The notes beneath the pieces were generated by a model. The model was not told where the DNA came from. It saw only the letters and a program-made list of their open reading frames with translations, and searched no databases. The translations under genes and the position numbers were made by a program. Positions 1 through 8,341 of a stretch of DNA of 64,000 nucleotides are shown here, piece after piece. The DNA lies in the sequence record PZ445450.1; one strand, 5' to 3'. This DNA comes from a phage. The first letter of the stretch is position 1; each line of letters begins with the position of its first letter.

Positions 1-2206
1 CGATCTTCCGCTGTGGAAATATGTGGATCGTGTGTTCGAGGACGTTATCATCCAGGAGTTGCTCTGGAAAGAGTTGGTAGCGGAATCAAAAGGTGTATTC
101 TACGGCAAATCTGACATGCAGAACTTTATGTATGACCCTGCCAAAGAGAAGCCTAAAGGATTCAAGAAGATTACCTGGAAGAATGCATTACGCCGAGGCA
201 TGCTGCAGCATTTCCTGATGGAGTTGCAGGCTCGACAGGGTGTGTATTTCGACATAGATGGGGCTATTGCTTTACGTGACCGCTGCGATGCGTGGATGAA
301 AGAGATCGCTGATCGTGTTGAACCACAACTTCCTTTAAAAGAGTTATCAATGTCTCAGCGGCCTAAGTTCCCTGAAAAGCCGTTTAACCAGGATGGGACA
401 ATCTCCAATAATGGTTGGAAATGGTTAAAAGACAAGCTTGGCTACCCTGTGGACATGAGTGCTTTAGAATTCAAAGCTCCTCCTAAGCGAGCATTTACCT
501 CCACAGGAGATGTCAGTAAGATGGGGATAAAATGGTGTGAAGAGATGGGCTGTAAAGACCCTGATAAGATGGCGGATTTCTTGAGGGGCTATATCAAGGG
601 CACCTCCACACCACAACCTTTACCTAAAGAGCTAATGGATCAGGCAATAAGCGATCTACAGCAGAAGCGAATGCCTGACTGCAAGATACCTATGAAAATC
701 AGCAATCAGGACGATATTAAGCGATACCTGATCAGTGCTGGTTGGCTTCCGACAATGTGGAGAACTAAGGATGTAACTAAAGACAGCAAGAAGAAAGCTC
801 TACCTGATGCAGATGTTGATGCACGAGTGTATGCATATATGGACGAGCTTTTAGAGTCAGAGTATTGTGACCTAATTATCAACTTCTGGAACAAAACTGA
901 TGCTAAGTTCCAGACAACCGTGCACAAGTTCCGAAGCTTTCCTAACTCCGAAAGGATTAAAAAGGAAGTATTCGGGAAAATACGTAGAAAAGCTAGGGCA
1001 CTTATTACTTCTCCGCAACTGAAAGATACGTTTGGACACCTATGCCCGAATCTTGAAAAATTGAACGGAGAGATGGCTAAAGATATCGTCTTGTGGTTAT
1101 CATTGCGAAACCGCAGATCGGTCCTTGATCCAATCAAGGAGGATAAGGTTGATACTGGTCTTCTTAATCACCCACGTTTGAAGATTGACCATAAGCTTCC
1201 TGCTAAAAGTTCTGGATTAACAAACACTTCCCGACAGAAACACAGTATTTGTGCAAACATGCCTAAACCATCTCCTAAAGTGGTTATGGGTAAAGAGATG
1301 CGTAGTCTGTGGGGTGTTCCTCCAGGATACTTTGAGATCGGTATTGACGGGTCCAACTTAGAGCAGCTTATCGGGGCTTGGGGTGCCTTTGAGTTCGACA
1401 ACGGCTTGTACTATGATGTTGTAAGTAACGGAGACGCACACCAAAACAATGCTGAGGCATATACAAAAGTAGCAGGCAAAGAGGTGTCTCGTAACGACGG
1501 TAAACCTATCACGTATGGGGTTATGTACGGGGCACAAAAAGATAAAGTTGCAGATATGCTGGATATCTCCCCAGAGTTGGGGCAAAGGGTGATCGATGCA
1601 CTTTGGGATGCCAACCCCGGTCTTAAGGGGCGCAAAGAGGATCTGGAGAAATTCTGGGAAGCAACAGGTAAGAAGTTTATCTACTCTTTTGATGGTCATG
1701 CTATCTGGACCCGATCTAAACACTCTTTACTTAATGCATACCAACAAAATGGTGGTGCATCGCTGTGTGACTTAGTTGGGATACTCATGCACCACCAAAT
1801 GGTGAAGCGTGGGTGGTACGATGAAGGTGTCCGTCGTATTATTTATTACCATGATGAGTACCAACTTCAGGTCCCTGACACACCTAAGTATAAGACTGTG
1901 TACACCTTCGACACAATTGAAGAATTGGAAGCATTTAAGGCAGAGCAGGAGGCCAAACTTCATGTGTTCGACGGTCATAAGTACAAAAAGGCACGCAAGG
2001 ATGAAAACGGAAACGAAGTGGTTGACAGAGACGGAAACACGGTGTACGATCCTATCCTGAACGATGACGGAAAGCTTGAACTTATCTGGAGCCCTGTGGG
2101 TGAAATGGTGGTGCATTGCTTCTGGCAAGCTTCTAAAATGATGGGCGTTCCATTCCAGATCACAGGTGAATACTTGTGCGGTCGTAACTGGGGTGATTGT
2201 CACTAA
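1..2206 (+). CDS. DNA polymerase, family A (Pol I-like), C-terminal part; 5' end lies outside the window
   Basis: ORF open from window start in frame 2. Motif A-like DGSNLEQL, motif B K...YGVMYG, motif C YYHDEYQ. Confidence 0.9.
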   Translation, partial: DLPLWKYVDRVFEDVIIQELLWKELVAESKGVFYGKSDMQNFMYDPAKEKPKGFKKITWKNALRRGMLQHFLMELQARQGVYFDIDGAIALRDRCDAWMKEIADRVEPQLPLKELSMSQRPKFPEKPFNQDGTISNNGWKWLKDKLGYPVDMSALEFKAPPKRAFTSTGDVSKMGIKWCEEMGCKDPDKMADFLRGYIKGTSTPQPLPKELMDQAISDLQQKRMPDCKIPMKISNQDDIKRYLISAGWLPTMWRTKDVTKDSKKKALPDADVDARVYAYMDELLESEYCDLIINFWNKTDAKFQTTVHKFRSFPNSERIKKEVFGKIRRKARALITSPQLKDTFGHLCPNLEKLNGEMAKDIVLWLSLRNRRSVLDPIKEDKVDTGLLNHPRLKIDHKLPAKSSGLTNTSRQKHSICANMPKPSPKVVMGKEMRSLWGVPPGYFEIGIDGSNLEQLIGAWGAFEFDNGLYYDVVSNGDAHQNNAEAYTKVAGKEVSRNDGKPITYGVMYGAQKDKVADMLDISPELGQRVIDALWDANPGLKGRKEDLEKFWEATGKKFIYSFDGHAIWTRSKHSLLNAYQQNGGASLCDLVGILMHHQMVKRGWYDEGVRRIIYYHDEYQLQVPDTPKYKTVYTFDTIEELEAFKAEQEAKLHVFDGHKYKKARKDENGNEVVDRDGNTVYDPILNDDGKLELIWSPVGEMVVHCFWQASKMMGVPFQITGEYLCGRNWGDCH

Positions 2207-3671: not shown

Positions 3672-3700
3672 TTGACAACAGTCATAGGGCTTACTATAAT
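3672..3700 (+). promoter_or_regulatory. consensus sigma70 promoter (TTGACA-N17-TATAAT)
   Basis: -35 TTGACA 3672-3677, 17-nt spacer, -10 TATAAT 3695-3700. Confidence 0.6.
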
Positions 3701-3731
3701 GGCCCTATCAAAACGAAAGGGGACCACAGCA

Positions 3732-4004
3732 ATGACCAAACAATATCAACGAATTAAAGCCAAGGTTAAGCCAGACTATCTGGAGAAGGACTCTGCTTTT
3801 CGGGACTGCACAGCTGACAAAGTTTACACAGGGGCCGTCCTGTTGAACGATGAACTTGAAGTAGATATTCTGGGTAAAGAGGCCACTATTAAGGACGACC
3901 AAGGCGATTATGTTTGCTGCACCACACGTGAGCTAGAAATCTTAGAATACTTCGGTGAAATCTTCACCTCTCTTGATGATTACTTAGATGATGAGGAAGC
4001 GTGA
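3732..4004 (+). CDS. hypothetical protein, paralogue of 3414..3668
   Basis: aaagggga RBS before internal ATG; the longer track ORF start lies inside the promoter. Confidence 0.55.
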   Translation: MTKQYQRIKAKVKPDYLEKDSAFRDCTADKVYTGAVLLNDELEVDILGKEATIKDDQGDYVCCTTRELEILEYFGEIFTSLDDYLDDEEA

Positions 4005-4393
4005 TGAAAAATATTTGGGATATCGATATCTTTGAAGCCTCTAAGCTTGATGGTGCTGATGGAGTGATTATGGTGTCTGATGGCAAGGCAACACTAACTT
4101 CCGGAGATATCATCTATGCCTTGGACGAGCTGGCGCTTCTGAAATCTACCGGTAACACTTTAGAGGAGCGTCTTCAAGGCTTCGCCTTCAAAGAAGGCAC
4201 AAATACCGCCATGATGTGCACCACACGGACAGTTCAAGTTGGTAACGGTGTCTATATGATCATTGCTGTGTGTCCTAAATTCAGCAACGTCAACAAAGAT
4301 GATGCTGACGCTGTCAACGATGTGGTTGTTCTCTTCGTGGGTGACGCTATGGCAGATCTGATGAATGCAGGAGAAGCAGCAAATGAAGACTGA
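4001..4393 (+). CDS. hypothetical protein
   Basis: ATGA overlap with upstream stop; 130-aa ORF. Confidence 0.5.
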   Translation: MMKNIWDIDIFEASKLDGADGVIMVSDGKATLTSGDIIYALDELALLKSTGNTLEERLQGFAFKEGTNTAMMCTTRTVQVGNGVYMIIAVCPKFSNVNKDDADAVNDVVVLFVGDAMADLMNAGEAANED

Positions 4394-4685
4394 AAACATC
4401 ACCCCCGCAGGGTTCTTAAAAGTATACCGTGAACTGCTATATACTACAGAGGACAGTGTTCTAGAGTATCCAGAATATCTTTTGCTGTATAAGTATCTGC
4501 AGGAGGCTGGTGAAAATCTGCCAGTTAGTGCAGAAGGTGGTCCGAACTGGATATACAGCGCATGGAGAAAGGTTGACATTCTCCCCGACCCAGGTAAAGA
4601 TATGGTAGTTTGGCAGCTTATTAACAACATCGGGATTCCAATCTTTGATGAAGCTGTTAAAATCTATTTTGAACTTGACGATTAA
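4383..4685 (+). CDS. hypothetical protein
   Basis: caggagaag RBS lies between first and second ATG, so the second ATG is taken as start. Confidence 0.5.
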   Translation: MKTENITPAGFLKVYRELLYTTEDSVLEYPEYLLLYKYLQEAGENLPVSAEGGPNWIYSAWRKVDILPDPGKDMVVWQLINNIGIPIFDEAVKIYFELDD

Positions 4686-4702
4686 TATCAGGAGACCTTA
4701 AG

Positions 4703-4948
4703 ATGACTGAAGTAGTTGCTCGCGCAGGACAGAAAGTACGTTGTGTTGAAGTAGGTTTTGGTGGCAAAGGGTGTCAAAACTTGACTCAAGGTAAGGAATA
4801 CGCTGTTATTTCTGGTGGTGGCGACGAAAGTATTGTGTTCGAGGGCCACATCCTGGATGCTGAAAACTTTGAAATCTTTGACGACGATGGGGATCCGATC
4901 ACCTGCCTGCTGGACGGGAATTGGGGAACTTTCGAAGTGATTGGCTAA
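4703..4948 (+). CDS. hypothetical protein
   Basis: caggagacc RBS; Gly-rich acidic 81-aa ORF. Confidence 0.5.
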   Translation: MTEVVARAGQKVRCVEVGFGGKGCQNLTQGKEYAVISGGGDESIVFEGHILDAENFEIFDDDGDPITCLLDGNWGTFEVIG

Positions 4949-5031
4949 CAAATACCTATTGTAATTTACAGAAGGAGATGCTAAAATAGTGTCTCCTTCT
5001 ATGTTGTTCAAATAAAATCGGAGATTCCATA

Positions 5032-5397
5032 ATGGAACAAATGAACGATCAAGCGTCGGTTGCGATGAACGAGCAAGAACAACCTCAAGAATTTTTCTTA
5101 GGGTTAAGTAAAGATCAAGTGTCTCTTTTGCTAGTGCTTTCTTCTTTCATGGGAAGACTTCAGGAGCTCACACAACAACCGGAGGCTGAACAATTATTTC
5201 AGGCTCTGCGTGAAGAAGAAAAATATCGTCGTTTGGACTATGCCTTAGGTTGGGTAGCTCAACAACGAGATATGCTGATGGCCCTCTCTGGGACCACAAG
5301 TTTTGCAATGGGCCTGTTGGCTCAAGTTCAGGACAAATTAATTCAAGCAGGGTTTGCACACACGGCAAACACTAACGAAGAACAAGGAGACAAATAA
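5032..5397 (+). CDS. hypothetical Gln/Glu-rich protein
   Basis: RBS ggaga; 121-aa ORF. Confidence 0.5.
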   Translation: MEQMNDQASVAMNEQEQPQEFFLGLSKDQVSLLLVLSSFMGRLQELTQQPEAEQLFQALREEEKYRRLDYALGWVAQQRDMLMALSGTTSFAMGLLAQVQDKLIQAGFAHTANTNEEQGDK

Positions 5398-6626
5398 TGA
5401 GCGTTATTCAACAATTCGCTAACCCGATGAATCCGCGTGAAACTGTTTTACTGGCTCACGGCATGATTAAACGCGTCAGCATCAAGCCTATCAAAGGTGC
5501 TGATCCTACAACAGGTATTAAAACCACTGTGTGGCAAGGTAAGAAAATTGAGTCCAGCCACACCATCTCTTTACTGATTTCTGAACTGGATTCCTCTGAT
5601 AACCTGCTTCAAGGTGGTGAAGAAGTCTGGATCAGCATGGGTGATAAACTGCTTAAACCGGGTCATCAAGACTCTGTCTCTGTTAAGATTGATGACAAGT
5701 GGGAAACCGTAACGCCAGGATGGATCGTAAATATCCCTTTGAAGGCAAACGAGCATAACGGTAAGACCTACTACAAAGGCTCACTGGCTAAGATGGTTAA
5801 GCTGGGCGCAGGAGAGGCTCCAGCAGCGACTCAGCAGCAAAAACAGCAACAAGGTGCACAATCACAAGGCCAGAAGCAGAAACCTCAGCAGAATGCCAAT
5901 CAGGACGTTTTACGCATCTATGGTGATGTGACTCAGATTGTTGGCAACGTGGTTACTGTAAATGACCACAAGATTGGCGAAGGTGCTATGGTTGTAACTG
6001 ATGAGCAGCTTAAAGACCTGGTGGTAGGCGGTCGTGTTGCAGCCATTGTGGACAAAGACACCGGAAACATTATCAGTGGTTTCAAAGCCTACCCACCTAA
6101 GGCAGAGAACGGCACTCAAGGCCCTGGTGGCAAGCGTAAATCCTCTTACGACCCTATTGGTGTGGAGACGGGGCATAGCATCAATGCGTTGCAGATCATC
6201 CTGGATCGTGGGTTTAAGGTAGACGACCCACTAGGCGTGGCTAAAACACTGCACGTAGTCACCATCGAGCTTAAGAAAGAGTATGCTCAAGCCACCAACC
6301 GAACTGAAGATGAAGTAGGTGCCAGTGTCGGTAATGCGGTGTTGAACGCTTGTCGCCGTATTGACAAGAAAACGAAAGTTGATGATTTTGCAGCGGCAAT
6401 TACTGCAGAAGCAAAAGATGTTTTGACTAATCTGGCTGAGCCGTTGTACGATTGGATCAAGAACGGTGCTGAGTCCACTGACCATCAAGAACCTCAAGCT
6501 GCCAAACAGGAAGAAGCCGCTCCACAGCAAAACACTGTAGACGCCCCTCCTGTAAATGATGAGGAAGATGACCCGATGGATCAGAATCCAGCACAGTACG
6601 CCTTTGATGATGACATCCCTTTTTAA
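5397..6626 (+). CDS. ssDNA-binding-like protein with bacterial SSB-type C-terminal acidic tip
   Basis: Ends AFDDDIPF, as E. coli SSB ends DFDDDIPF; Gln-rich linker QQQKQQQGAQSQGQKQKPQQ; RBS aaggagac; start overlaps upstream stop. Confidence 0.6.
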   Translation: MSVIQQFANPMNPRETVLLAHGMIKRVSIKPIKGADPTTGIKTTVWQGKKIESSHTISLLISELDSSDNLLQGGEEVWISMGDKLLKPGHQDSVSVKIDDKWETVTPGWIVNIPLKANEHNGKTYYKGSLAKMVKLGAGEAPAATQQQKQQQGAQSQGQKQKPQQNANQDVLRIYGDVTQIVGNVVTVNDHKIGEGAMVVTDEQLKDLVVGGRVAAIVDKDTGNIISGFKAYPPKAENGTQGPGGKRKSSYDPIGVETGHSINALQIILDRGFKVDDPLGVAKTLHVVTIELKKEYAQATNRTEDEVGASVGNAVLNACRRIDKKTKVDDFAAAITAEAKDVLTNLAEPLYDWIKNGAESTDHQEPQAAKQEEAAPQQNTVDAPPVNDEEDDPMDQNPAQYAFDDDIPF

Positions 6627-6642
6627 CATCTAGTCAACATGG

Positions 6643-6669
6643 CCCTGCCCGAAAGGGTGGGGCATTTTT
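6643..6669 (+). terminator. rho-independent terminator
   Basis: ccctgccc-GAAA-gggtgggg hairpin followed by cattttt. Confidence 0.55.
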
Positions 6670-6688
6670 GTATAAGGAGATCTGAAAA

Positions 6689-7105
6689 ATGACATTAGAA
6701 GATATCATTGTTAAGCCTGAGAACTATGACCAATACAACCTGTCAACTCAATCTGTAGACCTTGGATGCGCCACGGTCAGTGCGTGGCTGGTTAACGGAA
6801 AAGAGTTGGATAAATGCTTGGAAGCCCACATGTCTGTTAACAAGTTCCTGGATGAAAACACTCACTGGCTTGAGGGTGCAGGCGTATATGCTTCATGGTT
6901 GGAGAGTATGGGATTCGACTACCAATCTGAAGAGGGGTGGTGGAGCTATTTAGCTATCTGCCCAGAGACGCTACAATGCTTCATGAAATATTCTGAAGAT
7001 TTGGAGTACCGTGCGGTGGTTGATAGTGCTATTGCCCGTTATAGCCGTAAACCTTTTTCCCACGACATTAAAACTGTGGAAGAATTTGTTGAAGTTTTCT
7101 GTTGA
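6689..7105 (+). CDS. hypothetical protein
   Basis: aaggaga RBS; 138-aa ORF. Confidence 0.5.
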   Translation: MTLEDIIVKPENYDQYNLSTQSVDLGCATVSAWLVNGKELDKCLEAHMSVNKFLDENTHWLEGAGVYASWLESMGFDYQSEEGWWSYLAICPETLQCFMKYSEDLEYRAVVDSAIARYSRKPFSHDIKTVEEFVEVFC

Positions 7106-7130
7106 CACGGATTGAAAGGTGTGCAATTAT
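7102..7130 (+). promoter_or_regulatory. sigma70-like promoter
   Basis: -35 TTGACA 7102-7107, about 17-nt spacer, A/T-rich -10. Confidence 0.4.
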
Positions 7131-7201
7131 AACTTCATAGAACGGGAGGACGTGATGAACGAAGAAAACTGGGATGTATAACTAACAGGAGGCCACTGCC
7201 C

Positions 7202-7399
7202 ATGATTTATCGAATCCGTGTAAGAGAAGATGCACCAGGCTGTTACTTTGACTGGCGTGGGTGGTGGTTTCTCCACCCGATGGATGGACTCACAGATAGA
7301 ATGCTGGATGCTGCCCTTTATACAGATACCGATATAGAATATAATCTCTATCTGAAGGACGGTATAGATAACGGTCTATTTGAAGCAATTCCTGTGTAA
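7202..7399 (+). CDS. hypothetical protein
   Basis: aggagg RBS; 65-aa ORF. Confidence 0.45.
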   Translation: MIYRIRVREDAPGCYFDWRGWWFLHPMDGLTDRMLDAALYTDTDIEYNLYLKDGIDNGLFEAIPV

Positions 7400-7467
7400 G
7401 AGACTGTGATAGCCATGTTTTATGATCTTCCTGTAGCACCACCACCTGTTGAACCCGGAGAACTAAG

Positions 7468-7893
7468 ATGATCTATGAAATGCCAAAACTGATTCGTGAC
7501 GATGCCCAAAACGCTCACACCATTATTATGGGCAAACGCATGGATATTATTTGTCATAAAGATTTCTGGGAAGGAAGTTACTTCACAGAGTATTTTGGTA
7601 AACTGGACAATGGTCTGCTGATCCAGTTCTACACCGATGCGGAAAACAACATTCACTGGGAGTTCGAAACTGAAGATATCCATAAACTTTTCACCTTCCT
7701 CGGTATTAAGGTTGAGGCCAAGTTTGAAGAAGGTGAGTGCGACGATTGTGGATTCTATGAGGTAACAGATTTCTACCTTCCAAGTGGTAAAAATCTCTAC
7801 TACGAAAGCCACTTCGGCAACTCAAATATGCCACAGGGTTGGGATGAGTTTTTGGAAATTGCAGAAGAGGAGCTGGAATACCGTGATTATTGA
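7468..7893 (+). CDS. hypothetical acidic protein
   Basis: ggaga RBS; 141-aa ORF. Confidence 0.5.
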   Translation: MIYEMPKLIRDDAQNAHTIIMGKRMDIICHKDFWEGSYFTEYFGKLDNGLLIQFYTDAENNIHWEFETEDIHKLFTFLGIKVEAKFEEGECDDCGFYEVTDFYLPSGKNLYYESHFGNSNMPQGWDEFLEIAEEELEYRDY

Positions 7894-8341
7894 TACTGTA
7901 AAGGGAGATCTAATCTCCATTTTCAAGAAAGGGTCAGGCCACATGATCCACGGTTGTAACTGCTTTCACACAATGGGTGCAGGTATAGCGAAAGATATTG
8001 CCCGTGAGTTCCCTCAAGCACTGGCAGCCGACAAAGAGACTGCTTATGGTAATCTAGACAAGCTGGGTATGTTTTCTTGTTGGGAGCATTTTGCCAAGGC
8101 CAGGGTCGTATATGGAATCAACCTGTATACCCAGTTCTACCCAGGGCCCAATGCTGAATACTTCTCAATCATGAAAGGTTTTGAGCGAGTCAACGAGGTA
8201 TTCAAAGGTATGTCATTGCCGTTCTACATTCCTAAAATCGGATGCGGTATTGGAGGTCTAAAGTGGGAACATGTAGAAGATGTAATTAATCTTGCAACCA
8301 CAGATATTGATGTGGTTGTAGTAGAGTACAAAAAGTGTTGA
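7883..8341 (+). CDS. macro domain protein, TARG1/OARD1-like (ADP-ribose hydrolase/deacylase family)
   Basis: VKGDLISIF...HGCNCFHTMGAGIA...PKIGCGIGGLKWEHV resembles the TARG1/OARD1 signature. GTG at 7883 chosen as start; the longer track ORF from 7784 lies inside the upstream gene. Confidence 0.7.
   Translation: MIIDTVKGDLISIFKKGSGHMIHGCNCFHTMGAGIAKDIAREFPQALAADKETAYGNLDKLGMFSCWEHFAKARVVYGINLYTQFYPGPNAEYFSIMKGFERVNEVFKGMSLPFYIPKIGCGIGGLKWEHVEDVINLATTDIDVVVVEYKKC

Follow-up and report, generated by a model that had tools for sequence, protein, structure and literature searches.

Does a phage gene whose product ends like bacterial SSB, the protein that binds single-stranded DNA (ssDNA), encode an SSB, or a protein that borrows only the tail? 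This question is raised by an open reading frame (ORF) in a 64,000-nucleotide stretch of phage DNA (PZ445450.1; hereafter, the window), for which a sequence-only reading had proposed either an SSB of the phage or a mimic of the SSB tail. The analysis presented here favors the former, and we estimate a probability of roughly 0.7 that the gene encodes the phage's own non-canonical ssDNA-binding protein. The main point is not new: a preprint has described it for Bas52_0087, an ortholog with 99% identity. The new elements are the family-wide conservation of the tip and a tip-masking endonuclease insertion found in 32 phage records.

The window originates from a Vequintavirus (an rV5-like E. coli myophage), and the region is 95–99% identical to about 100 such genomes. 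About 20 GenBank records in the MG0656xx series, labeled "Campylobacter phage" with Campylobacter jejuni as the host, are 96–97% identical to E. coli rV5-like phages over window positions 4000–8000, and their host attribution looks doubtful. The features of the locus are summarized in Table 1. The ORF itself was confirmed through its ATG start, AAGGAG site, and translation, and its product is indeed more than twice the length of bacterial SSB, with 409 residues against 178. The C-terminal end of the protein reads ...NPAQYAFDDDIPF and is followed by the stop codon. A longer C-terminal stretch reads ...DQNPAQYAFDDDIPF with TAA directly after it, and the peptide bearing the tip is PAQYAFDDDIPF.

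Table 1. Coordinates of the SSB-like gene, its encoded segments, and neighboring features in the window
Feature	Position	Strand	Remarks
Family-A DNA polymerase, C-terminal part	23-2206		Start of window; same strand as SSB-like gene
Upstream ORF, 121 aa, phrog_7310 (function unassigned)	5032-5397	+	TAA overlaps ATG of SSB-like gene by one base (TAATG)
Ribosome-binding site AAGGAG	5384..5389	+	7 nt 5' of ATG; read from sequence
Complete CDS, 409 aa + stop, ATG start	5397..6626	+	Belongs to phrog_4477; orthologs are Bas52_0087 and rv5_gp209
N-terminal OB-type beta domain (OB1), aa 1-139, pI 9.1	5397..5813	+	Block pLDDT mostly ~80-90; predicted ssDNA-binding module
Gln-rich disordered linker, aa 140-168, 12 Q/29	5814..5900	+	pLDDT < 50; between the two beta domains
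Second, minimal OB-type barrel (OB2), aa 169-236, pI 5.0	5901..6104	+	Order b1-b2-b3-short helix-b4-b5
Short basic disordered linker with GGKRKSS, aa 237-249	6105..6143	+	
Four-helix bundle, aa 250-356	6144..6464	+	Most conserved part of family
D252 codon; Y351 codon	6150-6152; 6447-6449	+	Positions mutated in Bas52 DRT10 escape mutants
Linker with many acidic residues, Pro, and Gln; disordered; aa 357-401	6465..6599	+	
C-terminal tip AFDDDIPF, aa 402-409	6600..6623	+	TAA directly after, 6624-6626
Endonuclease insertion site	6600-6664 (relatives: L001 10611-11290, L008 1400-1450)		Between tip codons and hairpin in relatives
Terminator-like hairpin (9 pairs, 7 G-C) + T-run	6642..6673	+	16 nt past stop; hairpin alone at 6642-6663

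The SSB-like gene lies approximately 3 kb downstream of the gene for a family-A DNA polymerase (DNA polymerase A) on the same strand. In Mangalyan, Bas52, and rV5, the primase/helicase and polymerase genes are located directly upstream of it, also on the same strand. The 121-residue ORF that precedes the gene is predicted from the one-base TAATG overlap to be translationally coupled to it. This ORF was rejected as a conserved partner, because the gene preceding the Phapecoctavirus homologue shows no similarity to it. The best promoter-like candidate upstream of the gene on its strand is a perfect sigma-70 consensus (TTGACA, 17 nt, TATAAT; 12/12) at 3672–3700 (+), at the start of an ORF spanning 3672..4004. 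About 1.2 kb downstream of the gene, a Macro-domain protein is encoded at 7784–8341 (+; Pfam PF01661; phrog_335, "phosphatase"), which is annotated in relatives as a Poa1p-like ADP-ribose-binding protein.

The tip is the part of the protein that most directly recalls SSB. AFDDDIPF matches the DFDDDIPF of E. coli SSB, which ends in ...PPMDFDDDIPF, at seven of eight residues, and the last seven (FDDDIPF) are identical. A tblastn search of the window with E. coli SSB produced a match at 6486–6623 only, and among all six-frame stop-to-stop segments of the window, this segment alone combines an acidic run with an IPF ending. When the family profile was compared with all PDB sequences, the sole matches were the last ~27 residues of the E. 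coli and Klebsiella SSBs. P408 and F409 are invariant across 25 homologues, and relatives have the longer PPMDFDDDIPF in common with E. coli SSB. A PF ending is found in 110 of 137 distant representatives, and 104 have [ILV]PF there, although column identity averages only 15%. Positions −4 to −6 are Asp in 75–80 of the 110 PF-ending representatives. The IPF, LPF, and VPF variants of the family are the same as those of bacterial SSB tips. The remaining representatives end mostly in PW, DF, PF plus one residue, or an endonuclease-derived extension. Natural variation at the terminal aromatic residue comprises seven of the 137 with PF plus one residue (PFN, PFS, PFA), five with PW, and several with DF or IEF. 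The uniqueness of the segment within the window, together with its conservation in relatives, indicates that the likeness to the SSB tip is not due to chance. Since this extreme C-terminal motif is kept behind a freely varying low-complexity linker, selection acts on it regardless of what the remainder of the protein does. The SSB-type tip noticed in the sequence-only reading is thus upheld both by its identity with E. coli SSB and by its conservation in relatives.

The architecture was examined with an AlphaFold2 model built on 25 homologues, in which the protein comprises six segments. Structure prediction had been proposed as the check for an OB fold, and the model contains two OB-type beta barrels, for which the best PDB matches are OB folds of the SSB, RPA, and PriB types. 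OB1 is basic and contains the conserved residues H55, W78, K97, W102, and G108. OB2 is modeled at residues 171–232 as a five-stranded barrel with a short helix separating strands 3 and 4, which corresponds to the OB topology, and comparison of OB1 with OB2 by hhalign gave no sign of internal duplication. Both OB2 and the helical bundle are acidic (pI ~5). In the model, the four helices of the bundle span residues 253–355, and the disordered tail spans 359–409. The conserved residues of the bundle are D252, G255, G259–H260, N263, G308, and G312. Modeled by itself, the bundle reaches a pLDDT of 94; it has no informative structural or sequence relative, and its profile gave no significant match among PDB sequences. 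Among the 53 residues of the tail including the tip (357–409) are 15 D/E, 7 P, and 7 Q; the net charge of this tail is −14, and its pLDDT is below 50. A Gln-rich linker had been assigned to the region just before the tip. The linker at residues 357–401 is rich in Gln, together with acidic residues and Pro, but the strongly Gln-rich stretch is that of residues 140–168, between the two beta domains. By analogy, the 357–401 segment takes the place of the intrinsically disordered linker found in bacterial SSB.

Sequence comparisons place the protein in an uncurated family. It matches phrog_4477, which is annotated without function, over its full length (E = 5.3e-172; residues 1–409 against profile positions 1–393/393). 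Scans of the protein against Pfam, NCBIfam, and PADLOC found no family. A Pfam scan of the 137 relatives gave scattered chance matches only. The NCBIfam model PRK09010 matched relatives only at the level of the tail, with 20–22 bits where the cut-off is 260, and did not match the protein itself. A word-indexed search recovered 58 family clusters, and a profile search run exhaustively over 1.84 billion representatives recovered 229 clusters at 50% identity (E <= 0.001), 157 of them at E <= 1e-10. The commonest form has ~285 residues and consists of an OB domain, the helical bundle, and the tail. The three-domain form with OB2 (~400 residues) is a minority, accounting for 36 of the 137 representatives. 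The cultured members are large Enterobacterales myophages, with a few from Pseudomonas and Acinetobacter. A tblastn search with the divergent members P0107 and P0165 gave matches only in phages of these three groups; the divergent members themselves come from metagenomes without hosts. The Phapecoctavirus homologue (293–301 residues) is encoded downstream of the DNA polymerase I gene and ends in ...EEPPMDFDDDIPF. In the records of close Vequintavirus relatives, the gene is labeled "hypothetical protein", and a handful of GenBank records already name homologues SSB, among them XPO96335 (EF1-1), XCO36049 (KP2025), and the records for ESCO5 and Eryne. The family alignment also shows mosaic domains. 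In P0040–P0042, a diverged first OB is joined to a linker and a second OB identical with the ones in the P0010 group, and P0033 and P0034 combine a P0010-type N-terminus with a diverged helical bundle. This mosaicism suggests that recombination may have occurred at the disordered linkers. The protein therefore belongs to a phage family, consisting of phrog_4477 and its relatives, that is predicted to act like SSB.

Comparison with established SSBs gave no relationship beyond the tail. When the domain profiles were compared one by one with the E. coli SSB OB, T7 gp2.5, and T4 gp32, the hhalign probabilities were below 1%; the templates were single sequences, and the comparison is therefore of low power. 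Searches with the T7 gp2.5 sequence by tblastn, phmmer, and hhalign gave no similarity to the protein. As judged by sequence, the protein falls in neither the bacterial SSB family nor the gp2.5 family, and this lack of detectable homology to SSB, gp2.5, or gp32 counts against the SSB reading. The gene content of rV5 weighs on the other side. Its RefSeq annotation includes a polymerase, a primase/helicase, a second helicase, an SP6-like exonuclease, endonuclease VII, and a ligase, with no SSB among the annotated genes. Searches of the whole rV5 genome by tblastn and phmmer with the sequences of E. coli SSB, T7 gp2.5, and T4 gp32 found nothing. Since no SSB is annotated or detected in rV5, the protein is the only SSB candidate.

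The same genomic context raises the possibility that the tip serves the phage replisome. The tip may dock the phage's T7-like polymerase or primase/helicase, in the manner of the T7 gp2.5 tail, and its identity with the host tip would then reflect convergence on a generic design of an acidic run and a terminal aromatic residue, or a historical capture that now lacks a host target. In rV5-like phages, the gene adjoins those of a family-A polymerase of the T7-like kind and a primase/helicase resembling gp4, and the PW, DF, and IEF ends of some members fit a loose acidic-plus-aromatic rule. Furthermore, a Foldseek search of BFVD returned weak matches to DUF2815 or "phage ssDNA-binding domain" proteins (E 0.012–0.073; query TM-score 0.13–0.16), and we take DUF2815 to be a gp2.5-like Pfam family. 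However, the match to the host exceeds such a generic rule, with FDDDIPF in this protein and PPMDFDDDIPF in relatives, and the IPF, LPF, and VPF variants of the family are ones that bacterial SSBs also have. A host partner is likewise indicated by the genetics of the Bas52 protein, which is linked to host Exonuclease I dosage as described below. Docking to the phage replisome thus appears rather unlikely as the explanation of the tip, although the phage-replisome and host-partner readings are compatible and not mutually exclusive.

Genetic evidence is available for the ortholog. Bas52_0087 (QXV84166.1; Escherichia phage RudolfGeigy/Bas52) is identical to the protein at 404 of 409 positions, and the gene order is the same. 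This near-identity and shared order indicate that the two are the same gene, to which the interpretation given for Bas52_0087 applies equally. A preprint of 30 April 2026 on the DRT10 (UG17) reverse-transcriptase defence reported two independent Bas52 escape mutants, carrying D252V or Y351C in Bas52_0087 (bioRxiv 10.64898/2026.04.29.721553). Both mutations are missense, as would suit an essential gene. Of the 137 representatives, 110 conserve D252. Bas52_0087 is genetically needed for DRT10 activation, and a wild-type copy in trans strengthens restriction; expressed alone, the protein is not toxic to E. coli and is insufficient to trigger DRT10 (bioRxiv 10.64898/2026.04.29.721553). Over-expression of host Exonuclease I (SbcB) weakens DRT10, and the preprint's own model invokes competition with SbcB or its displacement (bioRxiv 10.64898/2026.04.29.721553). 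Phold and AlphaFold2 analyses in that work classed Bas52_0087 as SSB-like and predicted a pair of OB folds, a bundle of four helices, a C-terminus that is disordered, and an FDDDIPF C-tip resembling that of E. coli SSB (bioRxiv 10.64898/2026.04.29.721553), and our predicted model reproduces this architecture independently. A paper on Retron-Eco7 describes a Vequintavirinae trigger (HZA56) without an assigned function, and its text does not name the gene.

These data bear on whether the protein coats ssDNA at all. It could instead be a decoy or anti-host factor, in which the mimic tip sequesters host SSB partners, for example by blocking Exonuclease I or RecQ, and thereby protects phage DNA ends or stops host repair, with the OB-like domains playing another role. 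Sequence similarity to SSB is confined to the tip, OB2 and the bundle are both acidic, and the SbcB competition or displacement proposed in the preprint (bioRxiv 10.64898/2026.04.29.721553) would suit such a factor. Against this, the protein expressed on its own did not harm E. coli or activate DRT10, and the harmlessness of Bas52_0087 over-expression argues against strong titration of host partners. The escape mutants are missense changes in the bundle rather than knock-outs, which is easier to reconcile with a replication protein that is essential than with an accessory inhibitor. In addition, the N-terminal OB is basic and carries conserved aromatic residues, the phage has no other SSB candidate, and the gene is a conserved core gene beside the polymerase in several phage subfamilies. 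We therefore regard a pure decoy as improbable. The SSB reading draws on the bacterial-SSB layout, the conserved tip, the polymerase-adjacent context, the Bas52 genetics, and the existing SSB annotations. The original pair of alternatives, phage SSB or tail mimic, is likewise borne up by the OB barrels, the position in the replication cluster, the lack of another SSB candidate, the family-wide tip, and the independent preprint. Within this pair, "SSB" is a well-supported prediction from the modeled fold and its context, whereas the tail mimicry is something we infer.

The DNA encoding the tip also appears to be a target of mobile elements. In 52 of ~118 Vequintavirus records, a homing-endonuclease gene (~620 bp; annotated as endonuclease VII, ~207 residues) lies directly after the tip codons, and the window's copy of the SSB-like gene has no such insertion. 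Two types of junction are found. In the first, the stop codon is kept, as in bov10K2, whose product ends in ...EFDDSIPF. In the second, represented by 32 records including rV5, MaxBurger, DrSchubert, and EmilHeitz, the stop is lost and 14 residues, APVGLQYGKSRIHAL, are added after IPF; this extension overlaps the start of the endonuclease. Among the BASEL phages, RudolfGeigy/Bas52, JohannBauhin, and JeffSchatz have a free tip, in contrast to the masked tip of MaxBurger, DrSchubert, and EmilHeitz. A similar C-terminal extension occurs in family members that are only ~40% identical, which suggests that related endonucleases target the DNA encoding the conserved tip. The family-A polymerase gene is another homing-element target within the same cluster. 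It is split in relatives (L001 1618–6207; L002 3750–6803): an HNH endonuclease lies between two polymerase pieces in Mangalyan, and the polymerase CDS of Bas52 is joined from two pieces.

The extended alleles have consequences for tip function. The SSB-tip pockets of Exonuclease I and RecQ hold the side chain of the terminal Phe and its alpha-carboxylate (PMC3159472), and the extended alleles should therefore be defective in canonical tip binding. Several of them additionally carry substitutions in the acidic run (DFCDDIPF, DFEDVPF, DFDLDIPF). Either the function of the tip is dispensable, at least in the laboratory, or the tip acts differently in these phages, and the tip-masked alleles count against the SSB-tip reading. 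A more far-reaching proposal joins two statements: that the family forms an uncurated class of phage SSBs with a distinct structure (an OB, a conserved four-helix bundle, and a host-type tip), spans at least 229 clusters at 50% identity, and uses its tip to hijack host SSB partners, and that the endonuclease-made, tip-masked alleles of rV5, MaxBurger, DrSchubert, and EmilHeitz alter dealings with Exonuclease I and with defences such as DRT10. We consider this linked pair speculative and quite improbable as a whole. If it were true, a selfish endonuclease would act as an incidental anti-defence switch. The natural masked-tip alleles could in any case act as ready-made test strains for tip function.

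On the favored reading, that of a non-canonical phage SSB, we infer ssDNA binding, oligomerization, and binding of host partners through the tip. The basic OB1, perhaps aided by OB2, would coat ssDNA arising from the T7-like replisome (family-A polymerase, primase/helicase) and from recombination. The four-helix bundle, to which the escape mutations map, may assemble an oligomer or dock a partner. The disordered acidic linker would present the D-D-D-I-P-F tip, a copy of the host SSB tip, to host SSB-interacting proteins such as Exonuclease I/SbcB, RecQ, PriA, RecO, and others. These partners might thereby be recruited to phage ssDNA, or host SSB might be outcompeted for them. The resulting change in ssDNA handling in the infected cell may be what the DRT10 reverse-transcriptase defence needs to fire.

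Large myophages of E. coli, Klebsiella, and Salmonella, rV5-like therapy candidates among them, have in many cases had no annotated SSB, a gap that this family of predicted SSBs fills. It indicates that the partner-recruiting tip of host SSB can sit on a protein without detectable sequence homology to bacterial SSB. The protein also links phage replication to bacterial immunity, in that its Bas52 ortholog is needed for DRT10 and that Exonuclease I, a known client of the SSB tip, tunes DRT10. To these points the present analysis adds the conservation of the tip over a very divergent family, the absence of this family from Pfam and NCBIfam, and the existence of natural alleles with a masked tip.

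The closest known counterpart, Bas52_0087, has the same predicted architecture of OB1, OB2, four-helix bundle, disordered C-terminus, and FDDDIPF, and the residues mutated in its escape mutants, D252 and Y351, are present in the protein. The two differ by five substitutions or indels, all in disordered regions, and the residue preceding FDDDIPF is S in Bas52 and A here. They represent the same gene in sister phages and are functionally indistinguishable. The ~295-residue homologues of Phapecoctavirus, Justusliebigvirus, and other large myophages share the N-terminal OB, the four-helix bundle, the disordered tail, the ...PPMDFDDDIPF end, and the position after the polymerase gene, but lack the Gln-rich linker and the second OB (residues 140–236 of the 409-residue protein). 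Bacterial SSB (PF00436) has the same layout, in which an OB core is followed by a disordered low-complexity linker and an acidic D-D-D-I-P-F tip at the very C-terminus, and the presumed common role is to coat ssDNA and to serve as a hub for partner proteins. Homologues of bacterial SSB borne by phages and plasmids also retain the DDDIPF tip. Outside the tail, however, the protein has no sequence homology to bacterial SSB (hhalign probability 0.2%) and no membership in the corresponding Pfam or NCBIfam families. Bacterial SSB is a homotetramer without a helical bundle, whereas the 409-residue protein has two OB barrels and a conserved four-helix bundle. T7 gp2.5 is an OB-based protein whose acidic C-terminal tail ends in Phe and is essential for partner binding. 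It is likewise a phage SSB that operates beside a family-A polymerase and a fused primase/helicase, and this replisome context matches that of the present protein, which likewise closes its acidic C-terminal tail with an aromatic residue and comes from a phage with a T7-type polymerase and primase/helicase. The tail of T7 gp2.5 ends in ...DGDF, whereas that of the present protein copies the tip of host SSB instead, on a scaffold with an extra OB and a helical bundle.
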